A DNA stretch of 64,000 bases from a virus (Duplodnaviria > Heunggongvirae > Uroviricota > Caudoviricetes): the IMG/VR virus record IMGVR_UViG_3300029841_000009, positions 1 through 64,000 of that record, one strand, 5' to 3'. How positions within the stretch are numbered: position 1 is the first letter of the stretch; every line of letters starts with the position of its first letter. A program made the translations under genes and the position numbers. Shown here piece by piece: positions 12,517 through 63,449 of the stretch. Below the pieces are notes generated by a model that ran no database searches, was not told where the DNA came from, and saw only the letters and a program-made list of their open reading frames with translations.

Positions 12517-14192
12517 TGTGATTGCCCACCCTGACCACTAACTGCATTCGCCATAGCTGACAAAACACTCGGATCCGAAGTTTTAGCTTCGCTTAGCGTC
12601 TTGGCACCCTGTGCCGCCGCCATCCCCATCGCCATCATTTGTTGCTGCTGTTGTTGCTGTGCCCGTTGCTGGCGAGCCTGCTCAACCTGTTCCTGCGGAA
12701 CAATGACGGTTGGAGACACTCCGGACATATCAGCGAATGCATCGATCGCCTGATCAACGTTGAGTTTGTCGAGAGCTTCTGGTTTCGCTTGCGCAAGTTG
12801 ACCAATGAAGTTAACCGTGGACGCCAGACTGGACAGGCCGATAGACTTCTGCGCCTGAGCCATGACGGAAATGTATTCGACCTTCAGGGGCATACCTTCC
12901 ATCACGTCTGGCGGTGGCGGCAGCATGTTTTTACGCACCATCATCGAGAAAGAGCGGTCAATGAGAGGATTAAGACATTCGTCGTTCAGACGCTCCAGAA
13001 CCGGCCCCAACATCAGAAGTTTTTCTTCTTTCATTTCGATCACCGCTTCAACAGGCATCGAGCGGGTATTGATGTTCTGCAACATCATGAACAGATCGAC
13101 AAAGTAGGCGCTGTTAATGATTTGACGAGTGTCCTGAATGTCTGCCACCAAATCTGCTGTACTGGGGTTAACCAGATAAGCAGGCCTGAAACCATCCTGA
13201 CCAGTAATCTGATCGATATACGTGATGTCGCCAGGAAGAAGGGAGGCACGCTGATTCTTGAGGGAAGTCGGAGCAACCATCGGCGGATTGGTGGCTTTAT
13301 CAATCAACTGCGACTTGCGCTTCTGGAGAAGCTGCAATGCCTTAACAGGTCCAAGCGCCAGCATACCCGGGCATGATGATCCATAAACATCTTCGCCGTT
13401 AACTTCCCAGCGCGGGGCCATAATTGGAAACTCATCGAATCCGGACTCACGCAACAACTTGTCGTTATCGCCACCAACCTCGTAATAAACCGATTTGAAT
13501 GGCTTGTTCTTGCTATCCAGCTTCGATGTATCGCGGTCAATGTTCGGGTAAACCGAATGCATCACTTCAATCCACTTCTCGTAGGTTCCGCTTTCCCACA
13601 TGCTTTTTACGGATTCGCTGACGTTATTTAGCCCGAACTCCTGAACAAGCTGACGAACAGTCATAGAGAACTTGCGAAAACAGGTGTCCACACTGCCACG
13701 AGGTGAGTTAGCCAGGTAGTAACTGCCTATCGGGAATGGCATTGTGCGAATGATGTCCTCGTCATCCTCCAGCACTGCCATTGCACCAGTGCTGTATGTG
13801 CCGAGGCTTCCGTATAACTGCGGCAGCGACTGATAGAGATTCGACTTATTGAACATATCGTTCATGCGGTTCTGCACCGCCTCAAGCCACAACTTAACAG
13901 GGCCATAATCCATCATTTCAGGATCTGGCGTAGCCAGGCGAAACCACGGACGCGCGGGGCTTGTGATGCCTGACATCATGCCGCTGGCGAGAGTGCGCGC
14001 CGCCATAGTCCCGGTCGAATCAATAATGCGTGTATTGCGTCGATCGTTACGGTTGACCTCAGAAGTCAGAAAGCGGGAACCACGCGGGTTGATGTAATCA
14101 CTCAACTCGCGCCAGTGCGGCTCGAACGACTGACGCTCGCTTTCAAGTTGTGCGAACTGTTTGTTCAATCGCTCTTTAGTTGTTTCCGCCAT
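12513..14192 (-). CDS. portal (head-tail connector) protein
   Basis: 559 aa, first large gene after the terminase; GGAG ribosome-binding site upstream of the ATG; Gln-rich C-terminus; size matches podovirus portals. Confidence 0.65.
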   Translation of the reverse strand: MAETTKERLNKQFAQLESERQSFEPHWRELSDYINPRGSRFLTSEVNRNDRRNTRIIDSTGTMAARTLASGMMSGITSPARPWFRLATPDPEMMDYGPVKLWLEAVQNRMNDMFNKSNLYQSLPQLYGSLGTYSTGAMAVLEDDEDIIRTMPFPIGSYYLANSPRGSVDTCFRKFSMTVRQLVQEFGLNNVSESVKSMWESGTYEKWIEVMHSVYPNIDRDTSKLDSKNKPFKSVYYEVGGDNDKLLRESGFDEFPIMAPRWEVNGEDVYGSSCPGMLALGPVKALQLLQKRKSQLIDKATNPPMVAPTSLKNQRASLLPGDITYIDQITGQDGFRPAYLVNPSTADLVADIQDTRQIINSAYFVDLFMMLQNINTRSMPVEAVIEMKEEKLLMLGPVLERLNDECLNPLIDRSFSMMVRKNMLPPPPDVMEGMPLKVEYISVMAQAQKSIGLSSLASTVNFIGQLAQAKPEALDKLNVDQAIDAFADMSGVSPTVIVPQEQVEQARQQRAQQQQQQQMMAMGMAAAQGAKTLSEAKTSDPSVLSAMANAVSGQGGQSQ

Positions 14193-18799: not shown

Positions 18800-19443
18800 T
18801 CGTACTCACCCCCCGCTGTTTTGAATTTGATCTCCGCTGCCTGCAATGCGTGTTCGACGTCGAAGCGGTCCAGCCATCCACCAAAGTGGTGCGGCATCAT
18901 TACCACCCGCTCACCGCTATTTATTGGGTGGCCCATACGGGGTTCGTAGCCGTCCGGTAACTCGACTTCCCGCGCTTCCAGTTCTGCTATGCGCTTCTCT
19001 GATGCTTCAAGTAACGCCTGCTTATCGCGTAGCGCTTCTTCCAGTTCAGCAACATGGCACTCACTATCAATAAGGTTGTTCTCTGCGGCTTCCAGCTCAA
19101 CACGCAGCTTCCCTACCGTTAGCGCAATATCCTCGTTCTCTTGGTCGCGGCGTTTGATGTATTGCTGGTTTCTTTCCCGTTCATCCAACAATGCCAGCAC
19201 GGTAACTGGATTGGCTGCGGCGATGAATTCAGCATTGGCCTGCTGTTCCATTTGGAAATCTTCATCGAAACCGCTTTCAGGATGCGCTCCTTCAATTCTG
19301 CAAATGGGAAGATATCCAACAACTTCACGATGAATTAGCGCATCACCAGCATCAAATCTCTCCTCTCCATATTCTAGCGACCACACACCACACGTTGCTT
19401 TTTCTGCCTTAGCACGCAGTGCCTGGTAATTAATTTCGCTCAC
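18796..19443 (-). CDS. Ead/Ea22-like protein
   Basis: N-terminus SEINYQALRAKAE and coiled-coil middle; GTG start preceded by AGGAGG. Confidence 0.6.
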   Translation of the reverse strand: MSEINYQALRAKAEKATCGVWSLEYGEERFDAGDALIHREVVGYLPICRIEGAHPESGFDEDFQMEQQANAEFIAAANPVTVLALLDERERNQQYIKRRDQENEDIALTVGKLRVELEAAENNLIDSECHVAELEEALRDKQALLEASEKRIAELEAREVELPDGYEPRMGHPINSGERVVMMPHHFGGWLDRFDVEHALQAAEIKFKTAGGEYE

Positions 19444-19684
19444 TGGCTGCCTCCTGCTTTTCTGCCTTCAACACCATGCGAGAACCATCATCCAGCTCCC
19501 ACACTATCTCACCACCTTCAGCCATGACCAGTTGCCACACCAATTGAGCAGCCTCATTGGTAACATCACGACCTGGATCATTGCCAACGCGCATACGTCC
19601 ACCTTCAACATCGCGCATTTTTGCCAGCATGATAGTTTTTGATAGCGGTGAAAAACCAAGCTGTAGTCGTGCTGAATTACTCAC
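19430..19684 (-). CDS. hypothetical protein (probable GTG start)
   Basis: Track ORF 19430..19717; AGGAGG-N6-GTG at codon 12 suggests the real start at 19684; the junction sequence is shared with the neighbouring Ea22-like genes. Confidence 0.35.
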   Translation of the reverse strand: MSNSARLQLGFSPLSKTIMLAKMRDVEGGRMRVGNDPGRDVTNEAAQLVWQLVMAEGGEIVWELDDGSRMVLKAEKQEAASERN

Positions 19685-20277
19685 TGGTTGCCTCCTTTGC
19701 GAAGCTGTTCCGCCCATTCTTCAAGGGATTTCTCCGCATATTCACCGGACAGGCCATCAATCGGATGCGCTTCATTAACCAACTCTTCTTTCGCTGACAA
19801 AATCATGCGTGTAACGTCGAAAACTTCACGCAAAGACTTATTGATAAATCCGTGATTGAACGCAGCAGCAAGACGGCTGGCGGTATAGTTAATCCCCTCG
19901 TTGCGTGCTTCCGCACGAATTTCAGCCAGAAAAGCATCGGTAGCTGGAGTTTCGCTGTGGTGTAGGGCATCATTGATAATCATTGCAGCAACACCAGCCT
20001 GCCCTGCATCCGTGACCGACACATGCTCAAGAGTTACGGCCATTGCGTGTTTCAGTCCGTCGTTCTCCACCACCAGCGCAGCGAGATTAGTCTCATACTC
20101 CGCAATTCGGCACATAGCATCGATATTTGTGTCCTCCAGCCGCTTAATTTCATCCAGTAGCGCCAGCACAACCTGCGGTGTGACCTTCATACGAAACGCG
20201 AGCAATTTTTGCGGCGTTGCCACGACTTTTATTGCTTCTGCTGCCTCACGCAGTGCCTGGTAATTAATTTCGCTCAC
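19681..20277 (-). CDS. Ead/Ea22-like protein (second paralog)
   Basis: Track ORF 19681..20307; AGGAGG-N6-GTG start at 20277 gives the N-terminus SEINYQALREAAE, paralogous to 18796..19443. Confidence 0.55.
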   Translation of the reverse strand: MSEINYQALREAAEAIKVVATPQKLLAFRMKVTPQVVLALLDEIKRLEDTNIDAMCRIAEYETNLAALVVENDGLKHAMAVTLEHVSVTDAGQAGVAAMIINDALHHSETPATDAFLAEIRAEARNEGINYTASRLAAAFNHGFINKSLREVFDVTRMILSAKEELVNEAHPIDGLSGEYAEKSLEEWAEQLRKGGNQ

Positions 20278-21034
20278 TGGTTGCCTCCTGAATACGCTTA
20301 AACTCAATTACCCATACCCACGGGTTAGATAGCCAGTTCTCTTGCCCGTAAATACCGCGCCAGATATCACCAAAGCCAACGCGATAAACAGCTTCCGGCG
20401 GTGTAATCTTGTACGTCGCCGGAGATGCGCCTTCCGCTTTAGCATCTGCCTCGCTCATGTCATGCAGCCGTTCCACACGCACGTCGGTAATTTCCAGCAA
20501 AATACGCGAAGCCCAGCGCGGCATGTGAATTGATGGACACCACCCGCCATCAAACTTTTCATTCACAGTGTGAGGTTTCCAGTCGGCATCATCGGGTATC
20601 GACCACAGGCCGTAATCACCAGGCTTTTGCTCGCAACTGGCCCGATAAATCCTTGCTGCGTTCTTCTCATCGCCACGACAAAGGTTGTCGTTCCAGTCCA
20701 CACTGCAACCATCCTCATTGCCTAATATCGCCCACGCTTCACGGACCCATATGCGATCACCAACGTTACCGAACGGACATAAACCATGTTCAGGTGCATC
20801 CATAACGTGGGTATAGACACCATTGCGTTTCTTTGTCGGTTTACGGATAACCAGGCAGTTATCGGCCCTGACATTTTTTACAGGTCGGCGAGTCTGCGTC
20901 TTCCTGCCTTCGAGGATGGCCCTGACCATCGCATCATTAAAAATCATGCCGCGCTCTTTCATCTTGCTCACTTCAACTCCTCCCGACGACGTTCCTGAAG
21001 CTCTAGCATTGCTGCTCGGAAATCCTGCCACCAT
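20264..21034 (-). CDS. hypothetical phage protein (possible ASCH/PUA-like fold)
   Basis: 256 aa; MVRAILEGRKTQTRR resembles the GxKxxExR N-terminal motif of ASCH domains; start may be an internal Met. Confidence 0.35.
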   Translation of the reverse strand: MVAGFPSSNARASGTSSGGVEVSKMKERGMIFNDAMVRAILEGRKTQTRRPVKNVRADNCLVIRKPTKKRNGVYTHVMDAPEHGLCPFGNVGDRIWVREAWAILGNEDGCSVDWNDNLCRGDEKNAARIYRASCEQKPGDYGLWSIPDDADWKPHTVNEKFDGGWCPSIHMPRWASRILLEITDVRVERLHDMSEADAKAEGASPATYKITPPEAVYRVGFGDIWRGIYGQENWLSNPWVWVIEFKRIQEATSERN

Positions 21035-21333
21035 TCCTCATCTGCAACGGGGGTGTTCCGCTCCAGCACCTTGTCCGCATCGGAGATCAGGTTTGCCAGA
21101 CTCTTGTCTGAAATCTTCGTTACCGGAGTCGTTGGTTGCTCAACCTGCCCGATAGGTTTTATCGTGCTCAAAAGGAGGCGACGGCGGGAAAGTGGTGCCC
21201 CACAACGACGGCCATCTTCCTTGCGATATGTTTCTTTCGGACCAACACACCAGGTTGTCGGCGTCTCGCGCAACTTCACTTTTTTCTCACCATCATTGGT
21301 AATGATTATTCCGGTATGGGTTTTGATGCTCAT
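20968..21333 (-). CDS. hypothetical protein
   Basis: 121-aa basic ORF; overlaps the upstream ORF in another frame, so the start is uncertain. Confidence 0.3.
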   Translation of the reverse strand: MSIKTHTGIIITNDGEKKVKLRETPTTWCVGPKETYRKEDGRRCGAPLSRRRLLLSTIKPIGQVEQPTTPVTKISDKSLANLISDADKVLERNTPVADEEWWQDFRAAMLELQERRREELK

Positions 21334-21632
21334 GCCACAGCCCCTCTCAACGGCTTAACTTTGGCTAATAAGGTGTTAAACAACATGGAGTTAGGATTCA
21401 TGCCAAATGGCAATTCCGGTTTAGCGGAGTAGTACAGGCAACCATTTATTTTCCTGGTTGTTATCTGTCCTTCGGCAACCATGCTTCTCAGTCTGCAACG
21501 CATAGAGTTCTGCGACACACCAATGTGCTCCGCGATTACGTCCACTTTTGAACATGGGTGATCGGTCAGGAAATTAATCACATCTTGGGGGTTAATAATT
21601 TTGCGTTTCATTGTCGAGGCGTCCTTATACAT
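21330..21632 (-). CDS. small hypothetical protein (possible DNA-binding)
   Basis: 100 aa; likely start at the internal Met (MKRKII, about 21611) with an AAGGA ribosome-binding site; a hairpin terminator and AT-rich motif lie upstream. Confidence 0.4.
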   Translation of the reverse strand: MYKDASTMKRKIINPQDVINFLTDHPCSKVDVIAEHIGVSQNSMRCRLRSMVAEGQITTRKINGCLYYSAKPELPFGMNPNSMLFNTLLAKVKPLRGAVA

Positions 21633-21688
21633 TTATATAAATATATAATTCTATATACGGCGGGAGACATCCCGCCGTAGGCTTACTG

Positions 21689-22756
21689 TCAGGCTTTCAA
21701 TAGCGATTCTTTCAGATATCGGGCATCAGCCAGGGCATTTGGAGTAATCTTGCGAACCCATGCATTACGGGTTGGACTCCACTTAAAGGCGCGTGATTTA
21801 AGCAGCGAACGAATGTTTGCCTCTGGTTTGCCAGGGAAATAAAACAGGATGCGGTTATCCTCTGGATCTATCTCCATAGAAAAGTCGTCGTATTCTTCGC
21901 GCTGTGCTCCTGTTACAGACTTGACCGATTCAAGCTCCTTAATACGGCTCTGTAGTCGTTTGATCTCGGCGTTATTGTTGCTCAGTGCGTATGAAGGGAA
22001 TCCGATGTGCCCACAGAAATCTCCGGCCAGTAACTCTTTGGCTTCGCTTTCTGTAAACCTGAGATCGATTAATGCAGAAAGCTGCTGTAATTGGTCTTTT
22101 TTGTATTTGCGAATGGCCTTATTTGCGGCCTTCATTTTGACGTGTGACTTCATGCAGCCTTGCAGCTTACGAAGCAACTTAAATAGCGCATCAGGATCAT
22201 CAGACGAAATTCCATTACGACCAACACCTGCGGCTTTGCTCTCGTAGTGTGATGCTTTACTTTCGCATTCAACAAACGCTTTTCTTAATAACGCATCAGC
22301 TTTAGACAAACGGCGGCGATGGCCTTTCGCGCTATAATGGTCAACTAAAATCGGCTGGCCTAACGGGATCACATCCAACAGGTCATGCGCTCGCTTATGC
22401 GCTACCGCACCTTCTTTTCTGGCTTTTTCTGCACGAGCAATATATCGGGCAAGACGCGCGTTCTGGCGTTCCTGATAGGTGTTTACGTAATCATCTCCGC
22501 GCTGCTGCTGTTCAAGCCATGCTTTGCGCAGATCTTCTGTTACGTCCACCAGCTCCGCAGGGATACAACCAGTTTGGGCTTCATAAGAGTAACCATCCTC
22601 ATAGATACGCCCATCATCTTCAACAAAGAAAAAGGTTTCGTGCTCATCGCTTTTGACCATACGACCATTAACATGGCGTAATAGGTAGCCAGTATCAGTG
22701 CTTAACAGGCTGTTAGGGTTGTTGATCCAGTCAGAAATAATTACTTGTTTATTCAT
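21689..22756 (-). CDS. conserved hypothetical protein
   Basis: 355-aa ORF driven by promoter-leader repeat copy A; followed by hairpin CGGCGGGA-N4-TCCCGCCG. Confidence 0.5.
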   Translation of the reverse strand: MNKQVIISDWINNPNSLLSTDTGYLLRHVNGRMVKSDEHETFFFVEDDGRIYEDGYSYEAQTGCIPAELVDVTEDLRKAWLEQQQRGDDYVNTYQERQNARLARYIARAEKARKEGAVAHKRAHDLLDVIPLGQPILVDHYSAKGHRRRLSKADALLRKAFVECESKASHYESKAAGVGRNGISSDDPDALFKLLRKLQGCMKSHVKMKAANKAIRKYKKDQLQQLSALIDLRFTESEAKELLAGDFCGHIGFPSYALSNNNAEIKRLQSRIKELESVKSVTGAQREEYDDFSMEIDPEDNRILFYFPGKPEANIRSLLKSRAFKWSPTRNAWVRKITPNALADARYLKESLLKA

Positions 22757-22870
22757 CAGATTTCTCCGGTTTAACCAGGGCGGGTATCGCTCGGTTTCGG
22801 GTATAACCTTAGGAAATTTTTTCCCACCTGTAAAGCACTTTTTATATAAATCTATAATTATATATTTATA
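22757..22870 (-). repeat. promoter-leader repeat, copy A (TTTACA-17-TATGGT with shared 5' leader)
   Basis: About 110 bp nearly identical to 32755-32870 and 63334-63449; lies immediately 5' of the 21689..22756 start. Confidence 0.7.
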
Positions 22871-22925
22871 GATTTTCGATGTTCCCGATGTCTACACACC
22901 ATCAAAACAGCTCAAAATGACACTT

Positions 22926-26600: not shown

Positions 26601-26705
26601 ATGATTATAGATTTATATAATTATATAAAACGCTTTTCATCCGCCAAAAAGTTGGTTATGCTTACCTCGTTCTATAAATATAGATTTATAGAATTATATA
26701 ACCAA
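26585..26705. repeat. AT-rich iteron-like repeats upstream of parA (candidate centromere / par operator)
   Basis: Repeated TATAGATTTATA(T/G)AATTATATAA units; a further copy lies at 27377-27420 between the two par genes. Confidence 0.45.
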
Positions 26706-26709
26706 ACAC

Positions 26710-27378
26710 ATGGAGTCTCGACAAATGACTATCTCTGTAGGTATTTTCAACGGAAAAGGCGGCGTAACCAAATCAACAATTGCCCGTGCTTTAGCAGTTG
26801 CTTATGCAAAGGCTGGCTGGAATGTATGCCTGATCGATATGGATGTGCTTAACGGAACGGTAACGCGTTGGGTACAACGCAGAATGGCCAACAATATCGA
26901 ACCAGCAATCGCGGCGCAGCCGTGCGGCACACCATCACAAGTCCAGAAAATCATCGAATCAGAAGTATACGACCTGGTTATCGTCGATGGCGGTGCCTAC
27001 GCATCTGAATCAGTACCGAAGCTCTCTGAATTTCTGGATATGGTTATTTTGCCAACCAGATTCTCTACCGATGACCTGGAAACCACCGTTAACACAGCTC
27101 ACGGCATCGTTAAAAAGGGTGTACCAATCAAGAAAATTTGCATGGTGTTTTCCGGCGCGGCTGAAAACGAAGCTGACTATATTGAAGCCCAAGAGTACCT
27201 GGCTAATACGCCATACTTTGTTGTCGATAAGTACATTCCCCACAAGCCAGCTCTGAGCAAAGCTCAGGATAAGGGCTTAAGCCTTATTGAGTGCTCATAC
27301 GTTGCGCCACGCAAAAAGGCAGACGATGTTATCCAGGGGATTATCAATCAGCTTGAGGCTCTGACTACTGCCGCGTAA
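26710..27378 (+). CDS. parA: ParA-family partition ATPase (small type Ib-like)
   Basis: Deviant Walker A GKGGVTKST near the N-terminus, about 220 aa with no N-terminal HTH; the start may be the second ATG (26725) preceded by GGAG. Confidence 0.8.
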   Translation: MESRQMTISVGIFNGKGGVTKSTIARALAVAYAKAGWNVCLIDMDVLNGTVTRWVQRRMANNIEPAIAAQPCGTPSQVQKIIESEVYDLVIVDGGAYASESVPKLSEFLDMVILPTRFSTDDLETTVNTAHGIVKKGVPIKKICMVFSGAAENEADYIEAQEYLANTPYFVVDKYIPHKPALSKAQDKGLSLIECSYVAPRKKADDVIQGIINQLEALTTAA

Positions 27379-27421
27379 TATATAATTATAGTTTTATAGA
27401 TTTATATAAAAGGGGATACAC

Positions 27422-27670
27422 ATGGCCGCACCATCAAAACCACCGAAAAAGAACAGCAAAGGCGTACCGCCATCAATCGAACAACCGCAGGTTTTCGACC
27501 CGACTGAAACGCCGACCAGAACCAAATCAGGTGGGGCACAAATGGCGTTTAACGTCGACCCTGAATTTAAACGCGAGTACAAAACGTTCGCCAGCTCAAT
27601 GGATATGTCATTGAAAGAAGTGCTGACAAAATCTTTTGAGTTACTCAAGGCTCAATACAACCAGAAGTAA
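27422..27670 (+). CDS. ribbon-helix-helix ParG-like partition / centromere-binding protein
   Basis: 82 aa, disordered basic N-terminus then MAFNVDPEFKREYKTFASSMDMSLKEVLTKSF (beta strand plus helices), immediately downstream of parA. Confidence 0.55.
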   Translation: MAAPSKPPKKNSKGVPPSIEQPQVFDPTETPTRTKSGGAQMAFNVDPEFKREYKTFASSMDMSLKEVLTKSFELLKAQYNQK

Positions 27671-27882: not shown

Positions 27883-27894
27883 ATTCAACCATAA

Positions 27895-27925
27895 AAAAGG
27901 CCCCCGAAGGGGCCTAATCGCTACT
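27895..27925. terminator. bidirectional hairpin terminator
   Basis: AGGCCCC-GAAG-GGGCCT with an A-run 5' on plus (T-run on minus). Confidence 0.5.
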
Positions 27926-28043
27926 TGCTGCTAATGTTTATCGTCACATTCAGAGCGTTATCAGTAATCTTCCAACCCTCCCCATGTGGCGTAAACAAAG
28001 CTCCAGTAACAACGATAAAAATACACATACAGTATTTTTTCAT
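27921..28043 (-). CDS. small hydrophobic peptide (about 40 aa)
   Basis: Internal Met of track ORF 27921..28103 gives MKKYCMCIFIVVTGALFTPHGEGWKITDNALNVTINISSK; ends at the terminator hairpin. Confidence 0.35.
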   Translation of the reverse strand: MKKYCMCIFIVVTGALFTPHGEGWKITDNALNVTINISSK

Positions 28044-28539
28044 TGTATGGCCCTTACAGGCCGTTTCACGGCATCCCCACCGACGAAAACAACGCGAGAG
28101 CAAGCACGGCTGCTTGTGCTTGCATGTACGGCAACGGAGAATCCTCCCCTAAAGTCGGTGCCCGGGTGCGAATCGGCGGGAAGGTCCACAGGTATTTTAC
28201 GATTATTTTAAGATTAGTTATAGGAAAGAAATTAAACGAAAAAACTCGTTTATTTTCACAAAATCAGTAACCTACCCACAATCTGTGAGTTTGCAGGCAC
28301 AACAAGAACCACAATTTTATGAAGCATAATAGTGGACTATTATTACCTTTTGGGTAAAATTAACTTGCTGCTTGTGCTTGCGTGGTTGTTTATACAACAA
28401 CGTAATGCTGAAAGGACCGCGAATCCGATCAGCACGAAAGAACCGTCCTCAATAGGGCGGTTTTTTTGTTTCTGCCTACCAATAAACCCACACTATGTGG
28501 TTGTCTCTGTTAAAATCCCGCCGTATTGACATAAATGCG

Positions 28540-28640
28540 CCATTGGTGGACACTTTCCGAGCCGTAGCAAAATCTACGGTCGGGATTGGAACCCCGATAA
28601 TCATCATGGCGCATACCGCGTTAGCGGTTTTTTTATGCGT
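28540..28640 (+). ncRNA. candidate structured regulatory RNA upstream of the antirepressor operon (immI/c4-like antisense RNA)
   Basis: ORF-free; successive hairpins (CCGTAG-caaaat-CTACGG; CGGG-ATTGGAA-CCCG) ending in ACCGC-GTTA-GCGGT plus T7; loop ATTGGAA is complementary to the downstream loop GTTCCAAC. Confidence 0.35.
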
Positions 28641-28799: not shown

Positions 28800-28991
28800 A
28801 TGACAAACCTACCCCATGACTATTACGTCAACCTCGTAAAGATCCTTCTCAAGAAAGCCTCATACGCCGATAAATTCCGCCTGGCTGAAATCATCGAGCG
28901 CGAAGCTATGCGCATCGCCAGCAACGATAACGCTGTTTCTGTCGCAAAAATCTCCCTCGTAACCAAAGTAGTTATGGGAGGTGCAAAATGA
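28800..28991 (+). CDS. small ORF translationally coupled to the antirepressor (icd-like position)
   Basis: 63 aa; stop overlaps the antirepressor ATG. Confidence 0.4.
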   Translation: MTNLPHDYYVNLVKILLKKASYADKFRLAEIIEREAMRIASNDNAVSVAKISLVTKVVMGGAK

Positions 28992-30169
28992 AAACGCTTC
29001 CGACCGTTAACACCCTACAGCCTATCCTGCATAACCAGCTCCCCGTTATCACTACTGAACTACTGGCGCAATTGTATGGAACCGAGCGCCAACGTCTGAC
29101 AAACAATTTCAATAGAAACAAGGAACGTTTTATAGAAGGTAAACACTTTTTTAGGATAGAAGGTAAAGAGTTACGAGAGTTGAAGAACAAAAACTCTTTA
29201 AGAGTTCCTGTGAGAGTAGTTAACGAACCATCTTTAAGAGGGTTACAAATTCCCCCGAAAGTTCGCTCCCTCATCCTCTGGACAGAACGCGGGGCTGCAC
29301 GTCACGCCAAAATGCTTGAAACTAACCAAGCGTGGGATGTGTTCGAACGGCTGGAAGACAGCTACTTCAACCAGAACGCACAAACGGCCGCGACCGTAAC
29401 CGTCTCACCAAACAATGCTCGTGAGGTTGTCGATACGCTCAACGCCAAACCAATGTATTACGTTAAGGTGTGCAACAACGAGCCACTCACAACCTCAGCC
29501 GATGTTGCCCAAGCATTCAGCACCACAAACAATTCCATCGTTATGGCCATCGATGCGTTACGCATTCCTCGCACGGCTGCGGCGCGTCACTTCTTTAAAG
29601 AACAACGACCGCTGGAAGGAAGCGACCGCGAAATAACAATCTATCGCATGACAAAAGACGGATTTACCTTGCTCATGGAAAGTATCGACGGTCCAGGCGT
29701 GAAGGATATCAAGCTGGCCTACATTGAAGCCTTTAACGCTATCAGCAGCGTGTTAAAGGCAGAATACGAGCGAATGCTATACAACCGACTGTATCAGGAA
29801 ACAAAGATTATCCGAACGGCAACAGAACATCATCGGCTATTAACGGAACCAAACTACCGCAAGACACTAATCAAAGAGTTTGACAAGGCGACGGAGAAAA
29901 CTAAAGCGGCACTAAATCTACCAACAATGACTAAAGATGATGTGATATCAGCCTTACTTCTTGATCTGCTCAGAAACGCCAGAGCACTTATCAGTTTTGA
30001 CGAAAACCTGAATCCTCAGCTCAAGCTACTACCACCGACAGGCAAAGTAGTCGACCAAGCAGATCACAACAGCATACTCAGCGTACTGGATGCAAACCTG
30101 CCAGCCAGGACACTACAGGAGCTGATAAAAATATCTGCGGATAAACTGGCCGCAGGTGCAAAACCATAA
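28988..30169 (+). CDS. ant: phage antirepressor (AntA/ORF6N-like N-terminal domain)
   Basis: 393 aa; N-terminal VITTELLAQLYGTERQRLTNNFNRNKERFIEGKHFFRIEGKELREL resembles antirepressor N-domains; sits downstream of the RNA-like region. Confidence 0.55.
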   Translation: MKTLPTVNTLQPILHNQLPVITTELLAQLYGTERQRLTNNFNRNKERFIEGKHFFRIEGKELRELKNKNSLRVPVRVVNEPSLRGLQIPPKVRSLILWTERGAARHAKMLETNQAWDVFERLEDSYFNQNAQTAATVTVSPNNAREVVDTLNAKPMYYVKVCNNEPLTTSADVAQAFSTTNNSIVMAIDALRIPRTAAARHFFKEQRPLEGSDREITIYRMTKDGFTLLMESIDGPGVKDIKLAYIEAFNAISSVLKAEYERMLYNRLYQETKIIRTATEHHRLLTEPNYRKTLIKEFDKATEKTKAALNLPTMTKDDVISALLLDLLRNARALISFDENLNPQLKLLPPTGKVVDQADHNSILSVLDANLPARTLQELIKISADKLAAGAKP

Positions 30170-32274: not shown

Positions 32275-32376
32275 CCCAATGTAAGTTATCGGCTTGCCCC
32301 ACAATAAGTTATCTATCTTCAAACGCCCCTATATTAACACTCGCAAAGTGTCAAAATGACACTTTGCGCATTGTGT

Positions 32377-32757
32377 TTACTTAACGAGGAATAAAAATGG
32401 TTTATCGTTCGGCGGTGTACTCGGGGCTGGCTCGCTTTTGCTCATACGATCAGTGTACCAGGCCAGCTCCTTGTCAAAGTAAGCCTGATTAAAATAGGCC
32501 ATGAATGTGGTTTCAAATCCATAACGACCGCTAATACGCAGCATCTGATTGCCGTTCTCTGTTTCCAGATATACCTGGGCACGTTCCTGATTCTCCTTCA
32601 GCCAAGTTAAAGCCTCGTCGCACGAGGACACACGATACTCATCATCGTAGCCGTCATCGATGCGGCTTGAAGAAGAACGGCAAATCACGCCAACAGAACC
32701 AGCCAGGATAGTTTGAATTTTAAGGAAAGCGTTTTTGCGGATTTTAATCATGCTCAT
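32377..32757 (-). CDS. hypothetical protein (cargo of promoter-leader repeat copy B)
   Basis: 126-aa ORF starting right at the repeat. Confidence 0.45.
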   Translation of the reverse strand: MSMIKIRKNAFLKIQTILAGSVGVICRSSSSRIDDGYDDEYRVSSCDEALTWLKENQERAQVYLETENGNQMLRISGRYGFETTFMAYFNQAYFDKELAWYTDRMSKSEPAPSTPPNDKPFLFLVK

Positions 32758-32870
32758 CGGGTTATCTCCGGTTTAACCAGGGCGGGTATCGCTCGGTTTC
32801 GGGTATAACCATAGGAAATTTTTTCCCACCTGTAAAGCACTTTTATATAAATCTATAATTATATAATTCT
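32755..32870 (-). repeat. promoter-leader repeat, copy B
   Basis: Nearly identical to 63334-63449 and about 95 percent to 22757-22870; contains TTTACA-17nt-TATGGT and a GGAGA ribosome-binding site. Confidence 0.7.
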
Positions 32871-32919
32871 ATGAGCACAAAAAAGCCCCTTTGCAACAGG
32901 GGCTTATCATTCGTTCTGA

Positions 32920-33219
32920 TCAGATGTTAAACGCTATTCGTTTTCCTGTGGGAAGCTCAACATCCAGGCTTAATTTGCCTCCCATAGCTTCAACGTAACG
33001 CTTTAATGTCGCCAGCTTTAAATCATTTCCGCGCTGCTCCAGCTTTGTTACTGCTGGCTGGCTTATACCCATCGCCTCAGCAACCTGCTTTTGTGATAAC
33101 TGGAGTTCTTCACGCATCATCTGCAAGCCGACCTCAAGAATCATCTCATCTGCCATTTCTTTAATTCGCGCCTGGCTTTCCGGTAAACGGCTGGCAATCA
33201 CCTCATCTAATGTTCTCAT
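32920..33219 (-). CDS. higA: HigA-like antitoxin (HTH XRE)
   Basis: 99 aa with helix-turn-helix LSQKQVAEAMGISQPAVTKLEQ; immediately downstream of, and coupled to, the toxin gene. Confidence 0.6.
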   Translation of the reverse strand: MRTLDEVIASRLPESQARIKEMADEMILEVGLQMMREELQLSQKQVAEAMGISQPAVTKLEQRGNDLKLATLKRYVEAMGGKLSLDVELPTGKRIAFNI

Positions 33220-33572
33220 TACTTGCTCTCCAGTGTGTTCAGATGTGCTGCAAACTCATCCTCAGCTATACGCACCAGTTTTTTATAAAACCGCTTATCG
33301 TTACTTTTGTCTCCTGCACAAAGAACGATAGCCCGGCGAATCGGATCGAACGCATAAAAGGCTCTTATCGGACGGCCAGAAAACTGAACGCGAAGCTCTT
33401 TCATATTTTTGTACCGAGAACCTTTTACGGTATCGGCATATGGCCTGGGTAACTCAGGTCCGTAAACCTGTAGCTTTTTCAAATCAGCCAAAACCTTTTC
33501 CTGAAGAGCGTCTTCTTGCTCATTTAGCCAGCCGTCAAATCGCTGGCTAAAAAGTACCGTCCACATGCTCAA
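33219..33572 (-). CDS. higB: HigB/RelE-family toxin (Gp49-like addiction module killer)
   Basis: 117 aa; ELRVQFSGRPIRAFYAFDPIRRAIVLCAGDKSNDK matches the conserved core of this toxin family; toxin-first gene order; TATAACCTGT-type palindromes upstream. Confidence 0.65.
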   Translation of the reverse strand: MSMWTVLFSQRFDGWLNEQEDALQEKVLADLKKLQVYGPELPRPYADTVKGSRYKNMKELRVQFSGRPIRAFYAFDPIRRAIVLCAGDKSNDKRFYKKLVRIAEDEFAAHLNTLESK

Positions 33573-33810: not shown

Positions 33811-34101
33811 CTATTTTTGTGACTTTACTCCTGGCATATGGACTTCCCAGCGACGAATCCCCATAGCTGCGCAAAAATCAGCCACATAATTCAATCCCGC
33901 CCATTCGCGGATACCACCACGGGCTTTTTCAATGAAAACGGCAATCCCTTTTTTATTGAGAGCAAAAAGCCGCCAGCTTTTTGTCACTTCGTCCTGGGTA
34001 GCCACAACACAAGTGAAAGCTCCCATGCGATACAGGTCCAAGAACTCTTTGCGTGTTTTGCGTACAAGTTCCATAACAAACCTCATATTTGCATGTTTCA
34101 A
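33811..34101 (-). CDS. hypothetical protein (downstream partner of a two-gene module)
   Basis: 96 aa; 4-nt overlap with the upstream gene. Confidence 0.4.
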   Translation of the reverse strand: MKHANMRFVMELVRKTRKEFLDLYRMGAFTCVVATQDEVTKSWRLFALNKKGIAVFIEKARGGIREWAGLNYVADFCAAMGIRRWEVHMPGVKSQK

Positions 34102-34397
34102 ACATCTGTTTTGTTATCAATGAAGATTAACCCTAACCCAGCGAAGTAACACAGCAGCGCCCAGGCTGCATACGGAATGCTGGATCTGGATGTGGACTCC
34201 TTTAACATCTGCCAGTTGCGAACATTGCGACTATCTTTTAAGCCTAGTTTTTTGGCTAACTGCGAGCCGCTCATTCCGGTCAGGCCAATGACTGCCCGAA
34301 CTTCTCCACATGTAGGAGATTCCCATTCATCCGCTTTTTTTAAACAAGCCGGATTCAACATTTTTAAAACAGTATCTTTATCCATAACCATCTCCAT
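34098..34397 (-). CDS. HTH-like protein with C-terminal hydrophobic helix
   Basis: 99 aa; helix-turn-helix-like GLTGMSGSQLAKKLGL and C-terminal transmembrane-like AAWALLCYFAGLGLIF. Confidence 0.4.
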   Translation of the reverse strand: MEMVMDKDTVLKMLNPACLKKADEWESPTCGEVRAVIGLTGMSGSQLAKKLGLKDSRNVRNWQMLKESTSRSSIPYAAWALLCYFAGLGLIFIDNKTDV

Positions 34398-34779
34398 TTA
34401 TTATATCTACGATGATAGGAAATCTTTTCCTATGTGGCAATAGAAATTTACTACATTGCGTATAAGACAAGTTTTCTATGTCTAATAGGAAATGATGTTT
34501 CTTACATTTTATCGCGTTCTGATGGCTACTGTGTGCGTATTTATCGACGTTTATTGATAAGGCTCGCCCCTTCCTCCTGCAAAGCCCGGCCGTAGGCCTT
34601 ATTTCGGCCTTATATAAATTGATTTTGTATAGTTCGAAACGTGCCGTTTCGAAAAGGATGATCAGGCTGCTCCATGCCTCCGGCAAGTGCCGGAGGAGGT
34701 ATATTTGAGCGTAGCGACTCGAACCGGCGCGAGCTTTAGCTCGCTGCAAGGGCGAACATATTCACAGGCAAAGCCTGTG

Positions 34780-35028: not shown

Positions 35029-35877
35029 TTAATGTTGGAGTGATTTCCAGGTCTTTCTTAACCTGTTATAACGCTGCTCAACGAGGGATCGTAAATATGC
35101 AAGGTCAGCACCAGGATACATGCCATCAGCAAATTCCTGACTAACCTCTCTGGTGATTTGATGACGAAGTTCGGCCTCTCCCTTTTCCCGAACAAGACGC
35201 GCAGCTCTCTCCGCTGCTTTCTGTTTTGCCTTTATCTCTCTGGCCGTCTTCCTCTGACGCCATACATTCTCCATCTGCTCCTGAATAACAATACGCTTAT
35301 AATCAGCCTCCGTTATCGCTTTTTTAAGCCGTTCGCTATTCTTCGCATTGAAGTAATTAAGTTTCTGGCTAACCGCACGTCTCCATGCTTGTTCAGTAAT
35401 ACCAACGGTTTCCAGCAGTTGATCACGAATCTCTATTTTCGCTGGCCAATACTGTTTATTCACCCGATCCCAGCGACGTTCATAATCAATAAAACCTAAC
35501 GCTTTCAGTTGCGACAACGCCCTTGTACAGCGCGTTATAGACTTGTTCCCAGCTTCGGATACGGTAGACAGGCCGCAAAAATCAGCCAACGCCTCAGCAC
35601 TAGCCAGAACCCGCTTAGAAATGATGTTTACATGGTGCAAAATCGCAGCGATCACAGCATTAATCGCCCGACGACGATGCTCGTTTATCCGGCGCTTCCG
35701 CTCTGACGGTTGATTAACGTAGAACGCAACCTCACACGTAAGATCACGCCCATTAATGCGCTGTAAAGCATCAGATAACACCAGCGGCAGCTTGTGCGTA
35801 TGGTGCTTTGGAGGCTGGAACTCCGGCGACAAATTACAAACGTAAGCTGAACGTAGAGACGGCATTGGTCTATCCAT
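35029..35877 (-). CDS. repA: IncFII-type replication initiator RepA (RepA1-like)
   Basis: 282 aa from the internal Met (MDRPMPSLR); SITRCTRALSQLKALGFIDYE and an Arg/Lys-rich C-terminus closely match R100/R1 RepA1 as recalled from memory. Confidence 0.75.
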   Translation of the reverse strand: MDRPMPSLRSAYVCNLSPEFQPPKHHTHKLPLVLSDALQRINGRDLTCEVAFYVNQPSERKRRINEHRRRAINAVIAAILHHVNIISKRVLASAEALADFCGLSTVSEAGNKSITRCTRALSQLKALGFIDYERRWDRVNKQYWPAKIEIRDQLLETVGITEQAWRRAVSQKLNYFNAKNSERLKKAITEADYKRIVIQEQMENVWRQRKTAREIKAKQKAAERAARLVREKGEAELRHQITREVSQEFADGMYPGADLAYLRSLVEQRYNRLRKTWKSLQH

Positions 35878-44091: not shown

Positions 44092-46876
44092 AACTTAATC
44101 TCCGTTGTTGGAACATATGAGCACTCAATTTCTTCTCAAAATCAGAATATCCCGCATCTAATGCTCTTTTAGCTGCCGCCTCAGTTTCCTTTGGTGAACC
44201 AGCCGGAAGATTGATTACAGGTGAATAGGTTATTCCACCAGTCACAGCGTTAACGTTCTGGCGAGGTCCAGAAGTCCCAGCGGCAGATATCCCGTGAGGT
44301 GATAAATTTGATTGCCCGAACTTGCTTGCTATTGCATTCTGTAAGCTGTTATTCCTGCTAACACCTGATGCCAGAGTAGTCATTATTGCACCACCTGACT
44401 TTGTTAGCTGTGAGAATGGACCTTTTTTCGCGTCAGAGAACGGTAAATACTCACGTACAGAAGAAAAAACGCCTTTCACTTCATTAATTAAAGCATTTGC
44501 TTTTGATTTTATCCCAGTGATTAACGTCTCAATTATTTTTGCGCCTGACTCACTCCAGTTTATTCCAGATAAATAAGTCGTTACAGATTGGAATGCTCTT
44601 ATAAAGAGTCCAACTGGTGAAAAACGCATAAAAACAGATACCAGTGTATCTATGATTTTCTTTCCTGTTTCGCTCCAGTTAATGCCAGAAAGGTAATTTG
44701 TTGTAATTTTAAATGCTTTAATTAAGAACGGAAGCGGAGACATCCATTTAAAAGCACTAATTAATGTACTGTAAATTCTTACTCCTGCCGAACTCCAGTT
44801 TATGTTGGAAAGATAATCCCATGCTTTACCAAACATAGATATAATCCATCCATTGAGGTCAAAGTTTAAGATAAAGTTTTTTATAGCCTCAAATGATTTA
44901 ACTGTATATTCCTTAACAGAAGGCCAAACTCTGACAGCATAATCTCTGATCTTATCCCAATTCTGATAGAGCAATATTCCTGCGGCAACCAGCGCAGATA
45001 TAGCCATCTGAATCCACCCGAAGGGTGTTAGCTTTGTCGCTACAGATAAAGCCAGCATAGCTACCCTACACGCTATAACCACACTTTTCATGGTTAGAAA
45101 CGCACCTGCCGCCATCACTATCTGAGACACAAAATTGGGGTTGTTAGCTACAAATTCACTAATTTTTGTAATCAGCGGAACCAAAACACTAAGCGCGGCA
45201 TTCAAAGCAGGTTGCAAGGCCTGACCAAAACTTAATGATGCATTGCTAGCCTGAATACGTAATTGTTTCAATCGCTCCGCATTATCTTTCGTTATGTTGG
45301 CAAAATCGCGGTCAATAACAGCACTTCCAGCTCCAAGAGATGTTGCTTTGATTCTCTGGTATTCCTTCCAGTTTTGAATCATCGGACGAACAAAGTTCTG
45401 AACCTGCATATCGCCAAATAGTTCACCAAGTAACTTCTGATCTCCGTTCTTAGTCATTTTCATGACAGAATGCATTGCAGCTTCGAATGGATTCTTCCCT
45501 TTTTTCTGCGCTGTTGTAACAATTTTATATAAATCTACACCGAAATTTTTCTTTGCTTTTTTTAGTGTTTCAGGGGAAAGTATTTTTGCCAAAAAGTTGT
45601 TCATATTATTAGCAGCCTCATCCGAAGTTGCAGCCCCCTTGCGAGCTATCTGCAAAGCTGCACCCATCGTCGCGGCTGCTTCTTTACCTCCCATTTTTAA
45701 TGCCTGGAACTGAGCACCAAGCACAGGAAGATTTTTGGCCATATCTTTAAATTCAAAGTTCCCCTCTTTCCCTGCCTGAACCAGAATCCCCATTGCAGAC
45801 TTCATTTGAGATGGATCAATCTTCAATGAGTCACTTAATGTAAATGATGCTTTCGAGACATCGAGGATATCAGAGCCAGTAGCTGTAGCTGTTCGCCCAA
45901 TAGTTAGTAGATTCGCCTGAGCCTCTTTATAATCCTGCCCAGCAGCGACGAGAAAACCCTGAGCGGCCTGAATATCAGATGCAAACTGGTTGGTAGCCGT
46001 TCCGGTAACAAGCATCGCCTGCCCCATCGCCTGAACTTCTTCCGGCTTCATATCTGCCGTAAGACCAATCATTTTGTTTTCACGATTGAAATTTGCTGCA
46101 TTGTTAGCAGCAGCAAATGCACCAGCCGCTACAGCACCAGTTTGTAATCCTGACCTTACAAGTTGACTCTTTGCCTCACCAAGATGCTCTCGCTTCAATT
46201 CACGCTGCCTTTCCAACGCGCGGTTTAACTCCTCCTGAGCACGTTTTACTGCAAGAACATTTTTCCGTGCTTCAGCCAACGCATTTTTATAGCTGTTAAT
46301 TTTATCAATACGTTGTTTTTCTAATGCCCGGTTAAGTTCCTCCTGCTGTTTTTTCACTTGCTGAACATTTGCTCTGGCTAAAGCCAAAGCCGTTCTGTAG
46401 CGGTTAACCTGCTCAACGCTACGGGCCTGAGCCTCACGATTACGATCAATGCTGGCTTTAAGCTCTTTCTCTCTTGAGGCCAAAGCTCTGGCAGATGTAT
46501 CAGCTCCCTGATAGGCAGACTTTAAAGCGGCCAGTTCTTCACGCTGAGAACGTAGTGATGCTCGTAAATTTGATGAATGTGTTTTTGCCTTCTCAAAGTC
46601 ACGAAGCATCGCTCTGGTTGGATTGGCCGTGTTTTTTATTTGCTTCTGTAACTCTTCAACGCGAGCGGCAGCTTTATGATATTCGAGGGCAGTCTGTCCA
46701 ACCTTTACTTTTACAGATTGTAGCTTTTGAATTTCCCCATGTTCTTTCGTTAACCCAGCAAGCTCTGCATTTAATTTAGCAACAGCCTGATTAGCTGTAG
46801 TAAAACTTTTGGGGAGAGAGGCGGCAACTTTGCCGCCAATTTCAAAAGCCAGCTTAAAGTTCTTATTGCTGGCCAT
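44084..46876 (-). CDS. tail tape measure protein
   Basis: 930 aa; long coiled-coil N-terminal half, hydrophobic central segments, downstream of the chaperone frameshift pair. Confidence 0.75.
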   Translation of the reverse strand: MASNKNFKLAFEIGGKVAASLPKSFTTANQAVAKLNAELAGLTKEHGEIQKLQSVKVKVGQTALEYHKAAARVEELQKQIKNTANPTRAMLRDFEKAKTHSSNLRASLRSQREELAALKSAYQGADTSARALASREKELKASIDRNREAQARSVEQVNRYRTALALARANVQQVKKQQEELNRALEKQRIDKINSYKNALAEARKNVLAVKRAQEELNRALERQRELKREHLGEAKSQLVRSGLQTGAVAAGAFAAANNAANFNRENKMIGLTADMKPEEVQAMGQAMLVTGTATNQFASDIQAAQGFLVAAGQDYKEAQANLLTIGRTATATGSDILDVSKASFTLSDSLKIDPSQMKSAMGILVQAGKEGNFEFKDMAKNLPVLGAQFQALKMGGKEAAATMGAALQIARKGAATSDEAANNMNNFLAKILSPETLKKAKKNFGVDLYKIVTTAQKKGKNPFEAAMHSVMKMTKNGDQKLLGELFGDMQVQNFVRPMIQNWKEYQRIKATSLGAGSAVIDRDFANITKDNAERLKQLRIQASNASLSFGQALQPALNAALSVLVPLITKISEFVANNPNFVSQIVMAAGAFLTMKSVVIACRVAMLALSVATKLTPFGWIQMAISALVAAGILLYQNWDKIRDYAVRVWPSVKEYTVKSFEAIKNFILNFDLNGWIISMFGKAWDYLSNINWSSAGVRIYSTLISAFKWMSPLPFLIKAFKITTNYLSGINWSETGKKIIDTLVSVFMRFSPVGLFIRAFQSVTTYLSGINWSESGAKIIETLITGIKSKANALINEVKGVFSSVREYLPFSDAKKGPFSQLTKSGGAIMTTLASGVSRNNSLQNAIASKFGQSNLSPHGISAAGTSGPRQNVNAVTGGITYSPVINLPAGSPKETEAAAKRALDAGYSDFEKKLSAHMFQQRRLSFG

Positions 46877-62795: not shown

Positions 62796-62869
62796 CCCAT
62801 GTTCTCCTTTGTCTGGATGTAAAAAAGCCCCGGCAATTGCCGAGGCTCGTTGTTCGTTATCGTTACGGT

Positions 62870-63070
62870 TTAATGCTCGCGTCGTCCGGCGACAACTTCG
62901 GATTTGTATTTCAGGTCGCCCAGCAAGAATTGCAGTTTAAGCATCTTTGCCGCCGTGTAGTTCCCTGATTCCACAACCTCTTTCATGAGGTCATAAACGG
63001 CCGCTACATCATCAGCCAGGAACTCTTTGCGTTGCTGCTCAGTCGCACGTTTGAAGGAAATACGCATCAC
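62870..63070 (-). CDS. hypothetical protein (second gene of repeat-C cassette)
   Basis: 66 aa; ATGA overlap with the upstream gene; hairpin plus T-run downstream. Confidence 0.4.
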   Translation of the reverse strand: MMRISFKRATEQQRKEFLADDVAAVYDLMKEVVESGNYTAAKMLKLQFLLGDLKYKSEVVAGRREH

Positions 63071-63336: not shown

Positions 63337-63449
63337 CGGGTTATCTCCGGTTTAACCAGGGCGGGTATCGCTCGGTTTCGGGTATAACCATAGGAAATTT
63401 TTTCCCACCTGTAAAGCACTTTTATATAAATCTATAATTATATAATTCT
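63334..63449 (-). repeat. promoter-leader repeat, copy C
   Basis: Nearly identical to copy B across about 115 bp including the start-codon context. Confidence 0.7.

Follow-up and report, generated by a model that had tools for sequence, protein, structure and literature searches.

In the kil-kor system of the IncP-1 plasmids (RK2/RP4), the klcA, kleA, and kleC promoters are repressed by KorC at the OC operator, together with KorA. KorC is a global repressor at several RP4 promoters, and klcA, which is strongly repressed by KorA plus KorC, is induced more than 100-fold on entering a new cell (PMC7314908); kil genes are harmful if unrepressed (PMC10871194). Regulation by partition proteins is known from KorB of IncP and IncU plasmids, which combines partition with global regulation (PMC7414963), from ParG, whose 4-bp boxes, set 4 bp apart upstream of its operon, act both as centromere and as operator (PMC3130281), and from the omega protein of pSM19035, whose 7-bp repeat arrays overlap three promoters and for which at least four contiguous repeats are required (PMC9499535). 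Here we describe three near-identical repeats in a 64,000-nt stretch of tailed-phage DNA (positions 1 to 64,000 of the IMG/VR record IMGVR_UViG_3300029841_000009, hereafter the window), each consisting of a short-repeat array, a promoter overlapped by a palindrome, and a leader that ends at the start codon of a different gene. With moderate confidence, we interpret these repeats as copies of one regulated cassette that form a doubly repressed, kil-kor-like regulon and are kept uniform by gene conversion.

In a self-BLAST of the window, the three copies of about 119 bp were the top-ranking repeats, with 100% identity over 119 bp between positions 32754-32872 and 63333-63451 and 94% identity of positions 22753-22870 to each of the other copies, confirming the near-identical promoter-leader repeats reported in the original prediction. 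All copies are direct and on the same (minus) strand, and a 43-nt repeat core has exactly three exact occurrences in the window, with a chance expectation of 0. The similarity stops at the start codons of three different minus-strand open reading frames (ORFs), encoding a 355-aa DUF3560 protein and proteins of 126 and 89 aa, in agreement with the earlier claim that each copy fronts a different gene. The copies had also been described as spread over three parts of the window, which proved incorrect, as all of them sit in one phage-plasmid occupying ~19.1-64 kb. Their positions are:

22753-22872, minus strand: cassette 1, comprising array, promoter with operator, leader, and start codon (self-BLAST 94%, sequence)
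32754-32873, minus strand: cassette 2, the copy at the centre of the original prediction, 100% identical to cassette 3
63333-63452, minus strand: cassette 3, 100% identical to cassette 2

The search of the repeat in other genomes was productive. All three copies are carried at the same three positions by 62 sequenced plasmids, the matching records (n = 65) belonging to Escherichia (n = 61), Salmonella (n = 3), and Klebsiella (n = 1), and three Yersinia pestis phage genomes likewise hold the repeat at these positions. They recur there in IMG/VR and metagenome contigs as well, and scans of these two sources with the promoter pattern returned almost only the same lineages. One natural carrier of a related element is E. 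coli ATCC 25922, with the 48.5-kb NZ_CP009073. Across the Escherichia, Salmonella, and Klebsiella aerogenes lineages, the three cassette positions are kept.

Read on the minus strand, cassette 2 begins with the array (32873-32842), which is followed after 5 bp by the -35 hexamer TTTACA (32836-32831), a 17-bp spacer, the -10 hexamer TATGGT (32813-32808), a leader of ~45 nt with the ribosome-binding site (RBS) GGAGA (32769-32765), and the ATG (32757-32755); transcription would start ~7 nt after the -10. The promoter TTTACA-17-TATGGT, as originally predicted for all copies, is present in copies 2 and 3, whereas the -10 of copy 1 is TAAGGT. Similarly, the predicted identity of the leader holds for all three copies, but that of the start-codon context does not extend to copy 1, in which the stretch from RBS to ATG is GGAGAAATCTGATG instead of the GGAGATAACCCGATG of copies 2 and 3.

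22806-22834, minus strand: promoter core of cassette 1, TTTACA, 17-bp spacer, TAAGGT (sequence)
32808-32836, minus strand: promoter core of cassette 2, TTTACA, 17-bp spacer, TATGGT (sequence and conservation pattern)
63387-63415, minus strand: promoter core of cassette 3, TTTACA, 17-bp spacer, TATGGT (sequence)
32758-32801, minus strand: leader (5' untranslated region) of cassette 2, identical in the three copies and homologous to the klcA leader
22757-22799, minus strand: leader of cassette 1, equivalent to that of cassette 2
63337-63380, minus strand: leader of cassette 3, equivalent to that of cassette 2

A generic promoter scan of the cassette was not significant by itself, and the main evidence for a promoter is comparative. 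In plasmids, phages, and metagenomes, 62 instances of the cassette were compared: their -35 is constant save for one TTTACG, the spacing is 17 bp in all, and the -10 occurs as TATGGT, TAAGGT, TAATGT, TATGAT, TAGTGT, or TAGTAT. Positions 1, 2, and 6 of the -10, which matter most for sigma-70, are invariant, and variation is confined to positions 3-5. Judged from these alignments, the conservation pattern of the cassette is that expected of a working sigma-70 promoter.

The palindrome TGGGAAA-AAA-TTTCCTA (32828-32812 in cassette 2) lies across the spacer and runs into the first bases of the -10, and a perfect version of it stands in the promoter of a korC-like gene:

22810-22826, no strand assigned: palindrome of cassette 1, TGGGAAA-AAA-TTTCCTA, overlapping the -10
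32812-32828, no strand assigned: palindrome of cassette 2, similar to a KorC operator
63391-63407, no strand assigned: palindrome of cassette 3, similar to a KorC operator
34416-34432, no strand assigned: perfect palindrome TAGGAAA-AGA-TTTCCTA in the promoter of the korC-like gene
34098-34385, minus strand: KorC homologue, a 95-aa helix-turn-helix protein and the putative binder of the palindrome

The 17-mer T(A/G)GGAAA-N3-TTTCCTA is found four times per genome, each time at a promoter, versus 0.21 expected occurrences. A loose palindrome pattern alone was not significant; a chance match was rejected because the full 17-mer is. In the promoter of the korC-like gene (TTGCCA-17-TATCAT), the perfect palindrome lies in the spacer, and it is kept in Salmonella and K. 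aerogenes relatives despite diverged flanks.

The 95-aa protein shares 52-53% identity (E = 8.6e-15 and 3.9e-21) with the protein at the korC position of an IncP-1-type plasmid, which sits between klcB and kleE-korA-incC-korB and is the most distant homologue found in the database. It also matches (E = 1.4e-5) the C-terminal helix-turn-helix domain of AcrIF24, an Aca-type autorepressor domain (PMC9001735). The similarity to this IncP-1-type plasmid extends to the DNA: its klcA promoter reads GTTTAGCTAAAC-TAGGGCATTATGCCCTA-TAAT, in which the first part is the KorA operator and the second a palindrome that overlaps the -10, and this palindrome (TAGGGCATTATGCCCTA) has the same 7-3-7 geometry, TAGG...CCTA ends, and the same position relative to the -10 as in the cassettes. 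The klcA and cassette leaders align as ACCC-GA-ACCGAGC...AAACCGGAGA...CCGATG, with the core ACCGAG...AAACCGGAGA common to both (8697-8751 in the IncP-1-type sequence L053). The alignment score of 31 was reached by 0 of 2000 shuffles (mean 13.4, standard deviation 2.2, maximum 28). The klcA palindrome and the leader alignment thus argue that operator, -10, and leader of the cassette are homologous to an IncP-1 'kil' promoter. The occurrence of these homologous elements before klcA also lends support to the portable promoter cassette that had been proposed from the sequence. No KorA-like gene was seen among the neighbouring proteins scanned, although no search aimed at one was made. The korC-like gene is apparently co-transcribed with an uncharacterised 87-aa ORF (33811-34074), which is followed by a pair of a Gp49/HigB-like toxin and a helix-turn-helix antitoxin (32920-33566).

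The second element of the cassettes, the TATA array, recurs at the partition (par) locus of the phage-plasmid:

22841-22872, minus strand: array of cassette 1, TCTATAAA TATATAAT TATAGATT TATATAAA, with the unit type and orientation of the par arrays
32842-32873, minus strand: array of cassette 2, CATAGAAT TATATAAT TATAGATT TATATAAA
63421-63452, minus strand: array of cassette 3, TATAGAAT TATATAAT TATAGATT TATATAAA
26598-26629, plus strand: par-locus array distal to parA, 4 x 8 bp
26671-26702, plus strand: par-locus array beside the parA start, 4 x 8 bp
27379-27410, plus strand: array separating parA from the parG-like gene, 4 x 8 bp
21624-21655, minus strand: stand-alone array upstream of a MarR-like ORF
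26725-27378, plus strand: parA, encoding a small Walker-type partition ATPase of 217 aa (Pfam CbiA/ParA/MipZ)
27422-27670, plus strand: gene for the ParG-like protein of 82 aa, the putative binder of the TATA arrays (AlphaFold2, Foldseek)

The pattern TATA-N4-TATA-N4-TATA (at most one mismatch) occurs at seven loci in the window, compared with 0.09 expected, and at eight loci in one complete relative. Besides the three cassettes, the seven loci comprise two that precede parA, one that lies between it and the parG-like gene, and one before the MarR-like ORF, and each consists of exactly four 8-bp units TATA(G/T)AWT in the same orientation to the downstream gene. In the cassettes, 5-6 bp separate the end of the array from the -35 downstream of it, and in cassette 3 the stop codon of a methyltransferase gene overlaps the first unit. 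The stand-alone array ends ~14 nt before the start codon of the MarR-like winged-helix ORF (21330-21632, 100 aa), for which no -35 is recognisable. An eighth array, of ambiguous orientation, is found in the plasmid NZ_CP103471 (L002; 34896-34931) just past the right end of the window, between lysis genes and a tRNA-Met gene (35065-35140).

The ParA of the phage-plasmid is of the small Walker type without an N-terminal DNA-binding domain. For the 82-aa protein encoded next to it, AlphaFold2 predicts a disordered region (residues 1-40; the N-terminal half is basic), an extended segment, and two helices (47-59 and 64-80) with a predicted local distance difference test score above 90. Its Foldseek neighbours are nearly all ribbon-helix-helix proteins (ParG 1P94, CopG, Arc, ParD), with template modelling scores of up to 0.87 against the target. 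The family of this protein (62 representatives found; 46 sequences aligned, including that of the window) has a ribbon-helix-helix sequence pattern, and 16 of the 46 sequences match Pfam RHH_10 weakly.

Relatives with other versions of the par locus connect this protein to the arrays. The conjugative non-phage plasmid NZ_CP037908 (L024) encodes a ParA with 45% and a ParG-like protein with 39% identity and carries TATA arrays at the same par positions as the window. In relatives with more diverged ParG-like proteins, the par arrays retain the 8-bp period with other boxes, namely TACA/TGTA in L025, CTTTA in L027, and AGCGA/TCGCT in L026. At the cassette-1 position, L027 has TTTACA, the palindrome TAGGAAA-GAA-TTTCCTA, the -10 TAGTAT, and an upstream array of the CTTTA type, so that the array changes along with the par system, promoter and palindrome being retained. 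This co-variation is the best evidence at hand that the ParG-like protein probably binds the cassette arrays, as far as sequence comparison can tell. The gene behind this cassette encodes a DUF4942 in place of a DUF3560 protein, which again fits a portable cassette, and a second CTTTA array follows the gene. NZ_CP037908, a cfr plasmid, has further arrays in its type IV secretion operon, before virB10 and a small ORF (11985-12012 and 13762-13787), and also a cassette (1469-1490) cut by IS26 inside the promoter spacer, which was rejected as an independent functional site given the cut spacer and the absence of a korC-like gene from this plasmid.

The identity of the cassette arrays with those of the par locus also suits an alternative in which the arrays are merely extra centromere sites, their proximity to promoters is incidental, and the KorC-like repressor alone regulates. 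Four contiguous units are the minimum that activates ParA in pSM19035 (PMC9499535), the arrays in the type IV secretion operon of NZ_CP037908 lack a cassette promoter, and dispersed centromere sites are reported for the phage-plasmid N15. We nevertheless consider this alternative rather unlikely: all arrays are oriented alike and stand at a tightly fixed place relative to the downstream promoter or start codon, the CTTTA lineage changed the array type yet kept its exact position in the cassette, and known ribbon-helix-helix systems unite centromere and operator (PMC3130281, PMC9499535).

Returning to the regulated cassette, its three cargo genes are each followed by a hairpin or terminator:

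21689-22756, minus strand: cargo of cassette 1, a 355-aa DUF3560 protein (Pfam DUF3560, E = 7.6e-31)
32377-32757, minus strand: cargo of cassette 2, a 126-aa uncharacterised protein
63067-63336, minus strand: cargo of cassette 3, an 89-aa uncharacterised protein
21658-21677, minus strand: GC-rich hairpin after the cassette 1 gene, with a TATA array directly behind it
32342-32368, no strand assigned: hairpin with a 12-bp stem between the cassette 2 gene and a convergent gene
62825-62848, minus strand: strong intrinsic terminator after the cassette 3 gene, with a 10-bp stem and a T-run

The hairpins behind the genes of cassettes 1 and 2 are without a good T-run, and a clear terminator stands behind that of cassette 3. 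Since such a structure follows each cargo gene, the cassettes appear to drive single-gene, moron-like units, and of the co-regulated moron genes suggested by the original prediction it is this anatomy (one promoter, one gene, and a hairpin or terminator after each) that was recovered. The DUF3560 protein belongs to PHROG 6744 and partially matches a 'primase' PHROG. Searches of the cargo proteins with PADLOC, Pfam, and NCBIfam gave nothing informative, and no match to a known anti-defence or defence family was obtained.

The same promoters could also be middle or late lytic promoters at which the array or the palindrome binds an activator rather than a repressor. The arrays lie at about -40 to -72, the classic place of a class I activator or UP element, cassettes 1 and 3 stand within a long co-directional run of lytic genes, and omega is reportedly, going by the title of a paper, able to activate as well as repress. 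However, a promoter whose -35 is near consensus, whose spacing is 17 bp, and whose key -10 positions are in place should not need an activator, and a palindrome over the -10 is the arrangement of a repressor, exactly as in the IncP-1 klcA promoter (PMC7314908). Furthermore, the strong terminator directly after the 89-aa gene and before the structural genes led us to reject cassette 3 as the head of the late (terminase-to-tail) operon. Activation at these promoters is accordingly given a low probability.

A similarly low probability is assigned to the possibility that the leader is an RNA element co-regulating the three mRNAs, whether as a target of a translational repressor or small RNA, as the binding site of an Aca2-like RNA-binding helix-turn-helix protein, or through processive antitermination. 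It would explain why the leader is identical in the three copies and why its core is shared with the klcA leader across very different replicons; in addition, the G residues of the RBS are able to pair in a small hairpin, and the 95-aa protein resembles Aca-type helix-turn-helix domains. The structural analyses speak against it, as the minimum-free-energy fold of the leader is weak (z = -1.3), its consensus fold reaches -5 kcal/mol with a covariation term of ~0, and an Rfam search of the leader gave chance-level matches only. The leader was also rejected as a target of the C4 antisense RNA, the duplex energies being no better than those of shuffled sequences, and most of it has diverged in the CTTTA lineage. 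A scan of species-representative genomes for the leader core returned a single match, in Actinokineospora, which was taken as chance.

The uniformity of the regulated cassettes is a separate matter from their control. Counted from -35 to RBS (72-73 nt), the copies within a genome show 0-2 differences, whereas E. coli-type and Salmonella-type lineages differ by 7-10, whichever copy positions are compared. The TATGGT/TAAGGT variant is found at different copy positions in different genomes, genome-specific variants of the spacer or -10 are common to the copies of that genome, and copies 2 and 3 of the window share a private 1-bp deletion. The RBS-to-ATG junction of one copy can be found on the gene of another, with shifting conversion end-points. 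Together, these sequence comparisons point to concerted evolution by ongoing gene conversion among the copies. The recombination hot spots for module exchange that had been proposed are borne out only insofar as the copies are homogenised, conversion being the one form of exchange seen. In the metagenome contig OJJP01000130.1 (L037), a cassette-1-type upstream array and flank are joined at ~5856 to the cassette 2 gene, explained either by one long tract of conversion or by cassettes having rearranged with each other.

Both the evident gene conversion and this join would be compatible with neutral duplicated DNA or recombination substrates that have no shared regulatory role. We regard this as very improbable: the three positions are kept in Escherichia, Salmonella, and K. 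aerogenes, substitutions follow the pattern of a working promoter, and the operator-like elements are found beyond the repeats too, one at the par locus and the other at the korC-like gene. That the repeats are a vector or assembly artefact, which the original prediction had named as a refuting outcome, can be dismissed, as all copies lie in the phage-plasmid part, and dozens of complete plasmids, sequenced independently of one another, as well as phages have them at the same positions, even though the left ~19 kb comes from another phage and the window itself may be chimeric.

In the doubly repressed cassette that we favour, the KorC-like 95-aa protein would occupy the palindrome at the -10 and repress, and the ParG-like 82-aa protein would coat the four-unit array abutting the -35 and likewise repress. 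The gene of the putative repressor has the same operator-like palindrome in its own promoter, and the same arrays stand in the regulatory region of the par operon. The kor regulon suggests, by analogy, a logic of burst and then silence, in which the cassette promoters would fire when the DNA enters a repressor-free cell and would be shut as the KorC-like and ParG-like proteins build up in the plasmid-prophage. The cassette arrays might double as additional partition sites, and the near-identity of the copies would be maintained by gene conversion and by selection for responding equally to the two proteins. More tentatively, and with some doubt on our part, the phage-plasmid may have adopted the control of a broad-host-range plasmid as a whole, a KorC-type and a partition protein jointly clamping the cassettes, the array serving as dispersed centromere and operator in one, and the cargo being expressed in a burst in a naive cell and then silenced.

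Several points weigh against the double repression outlined above. The assignment of each protein to its site draws on position, co-variation, and homology only, and a protein bound to arrays upstream of the -35 could activate or repress. The three cassette palindromes are imperfect (left arm TGGG versus CCTA), and the KorA operator GTTTAGCTAAAC is absent from the whole window. No Pfam family, ParG included, was matched by the 82-aa protein of the window, the profile of its family against ParG 1P94 (E = 0.88) is not significant alone, and the Foldseek E-values are weak for this small domain. Given the missing Pfam match and the profile result, 'ParG-like' is used here for an architecture, not for family membership. 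Moreover, the strongly conserved leader is left unaccounted for by the proposed model, and the cargo is without known function, its possible role in establishment or anti-defence being suggested by analogy only.

The element that carries the cassettes (window ~19.1-64 kb) represents most of a circular E. coli phage-plasmid of ~47-49 kb. It encodes contractile-tail structural genes (myovirus-type), an IncFII-type repA, and parA, as well as a HigB/HigA-like toxin-antitoxin pair and a CI-like repressor with an S24 peptidase domain, and has a P1-like region with a C4 antisense RNA beside an ORF6N/Rha antirepressor. Placement of the element in the pSLy3 phage-plasmid group was rejected, as pSLy3 belongs to the SSU5 supergroup. 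Window positions 1 to ~19.1 kb derive from another phage, whose portal, terminase, major capsid, and Bbp16 cement genes are of the podovirus type, and this left part of ~19 kb has 97-98% identity to 41-kb E. coli plasmids (NZ_CP079768, NZ_CP079771). The junction of the two phage parts, near 19.1 kb among ead/Ea22-like genes, is spanned by no complete E. coli genome or plasmid, so that the window could be either a hybrid that arose naturally or a product of chimeric assembly. Near this junction, a 55-bp direct repeat with 89% identity (19402-19456 and 20236-20290) lies at the ends of two adjoining ead/Ea22-like ORFs.

Just upstream of the ORF6N/Rha antirepressor gene (28988-30169), Rfam matches above the gathering threshold were obtained for ryfA (27893-28189, minus strand), isrK (28561-28634, plus strand), and C4 (28659-28746, plus strand), which together with the antirepressor form an immI module of the P1/P7 type, here in a phage-plasmid other than P1. 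The sites of a third scattered family, with the pattern ACCAC-N5-GTGGT, have 10 matches in the window (at most one mismatch) versus 1.07 expected. The intergenic sites (n = 5; 25296, 25399, 26150, 28487, and 36046) are located in the gap that separates the CI-like repressor gene from the divergently oriented early operon, behind the repressor gene, ahead of isrK/C4, and ahead of repA, and the family looks like a set of operators of the CI-like repressor, dispersed as in P1. Control of the cassettes by this repressor was rejected, as none of its sites falls in a cassette. The tape-measure gene contains three 42-nt segments (44535-44816) with 120-bp spacing and 71% identity.

Clinical and animal E. 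coli commonly harbour phage-plasmids of this ~47-kb type, and ~60 complete PLSDB plasmids carry the cassettes, which also offer a clean natural case of concerted evolution of regulatory DNA in a small replicon. An incomplete literature search found nothing on the cassettes, on the related Yersinia phages, or on a link between KorC and phage-plasmids. Should our interpretation be correct, 'kor'-type circuitry and a promoter-leader module would have been exchanged between conjugative plasmids and phage, and a partition protein would double as a transcription regulator of phage accessory genes. The DUF3560, 126-aa, and 89-aa proteins would then be a tightly controlled set and candidates for 'kil'-like establishment or anti-defence factors.

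Compared with the known systems, the locus is closest to the IncP-1 kil-kor network, with which it shares a KorC homologue, a 17-bp 7-3-7 operator over the -10, a klcA-type leader, and several near-identical promoters with the predicted operator of one repressor, the repressor's own promoter included. It differs in residing on a tailed phage-plasmid instead of a conjugative plasmid, in the inner operator bases (GAAA versus GGCA), in having a ribbon-helix-helix-type array upstream of the -35 in place of an OA operator, in a cargo unrelated to klc and kle, and in a korC-like gene with its own promoter.

Like omega of pSM19035, the 82-aa protein is, by its model, a small ribbon-helix-helix partition protein encoded beside a small ParA, and contiguous short-repeat arrays, here with exactly four units, are found at several promoters. 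In contrast to that system, the units are 8 rather than 7 bp long and unrelated in sequence, the proteins are not detectably related in sequence, and the replicon is Gram-negative and also a phage. The small ParA, the predicted flexible N-terminal tail with a ribbon-helix-helix domain, and the 4-bp boxes with 4-bp AT-rich spacers in an 8-bp period are reminiscent of the type Ib system ParF/ParG/parH of TP228, although the box is TATA instead of ACTC, each array has 4 units versus 12 + 8, an extra array lies between parA and the parG-like gene, and arrays also occur at non-par promoters. In the phage-plasmid N15, SopB centromere sites are said to be scattered among phage genes and linked to their expression. 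That system is of type Ia, with a helix-turn-helix SopB and inverted repeats, whereas the one described here resembles type Ib, its protein being of the ribbon-helix-helix kind and its arrays made of direct repeats, and its sites form part of a repeated promoter cassette. The cassettes further resemble phage morons and Aca-controlled anti-CRISPR promoters in that each appears to pair one gene with a promoter of its own and to have a terminator or hairpin behind the gene, and the korC-like gene resembles Aca systems in encoding a small helix-turn-helix putative autorepressor with an inverted repeat in its own promoter. The principles are thus all known, from the KorC/OC regulon, dual-function partition proteins, KorB, and the dispersed centromeres of N15; new are the combination of a KorC-type operator and a ribbon-helix-helix array in one repeated cassette, the presence of such a cassette in a tailed phage-plasmid, and a promoter-leader module common to IncP-1-type plasmids and phage.

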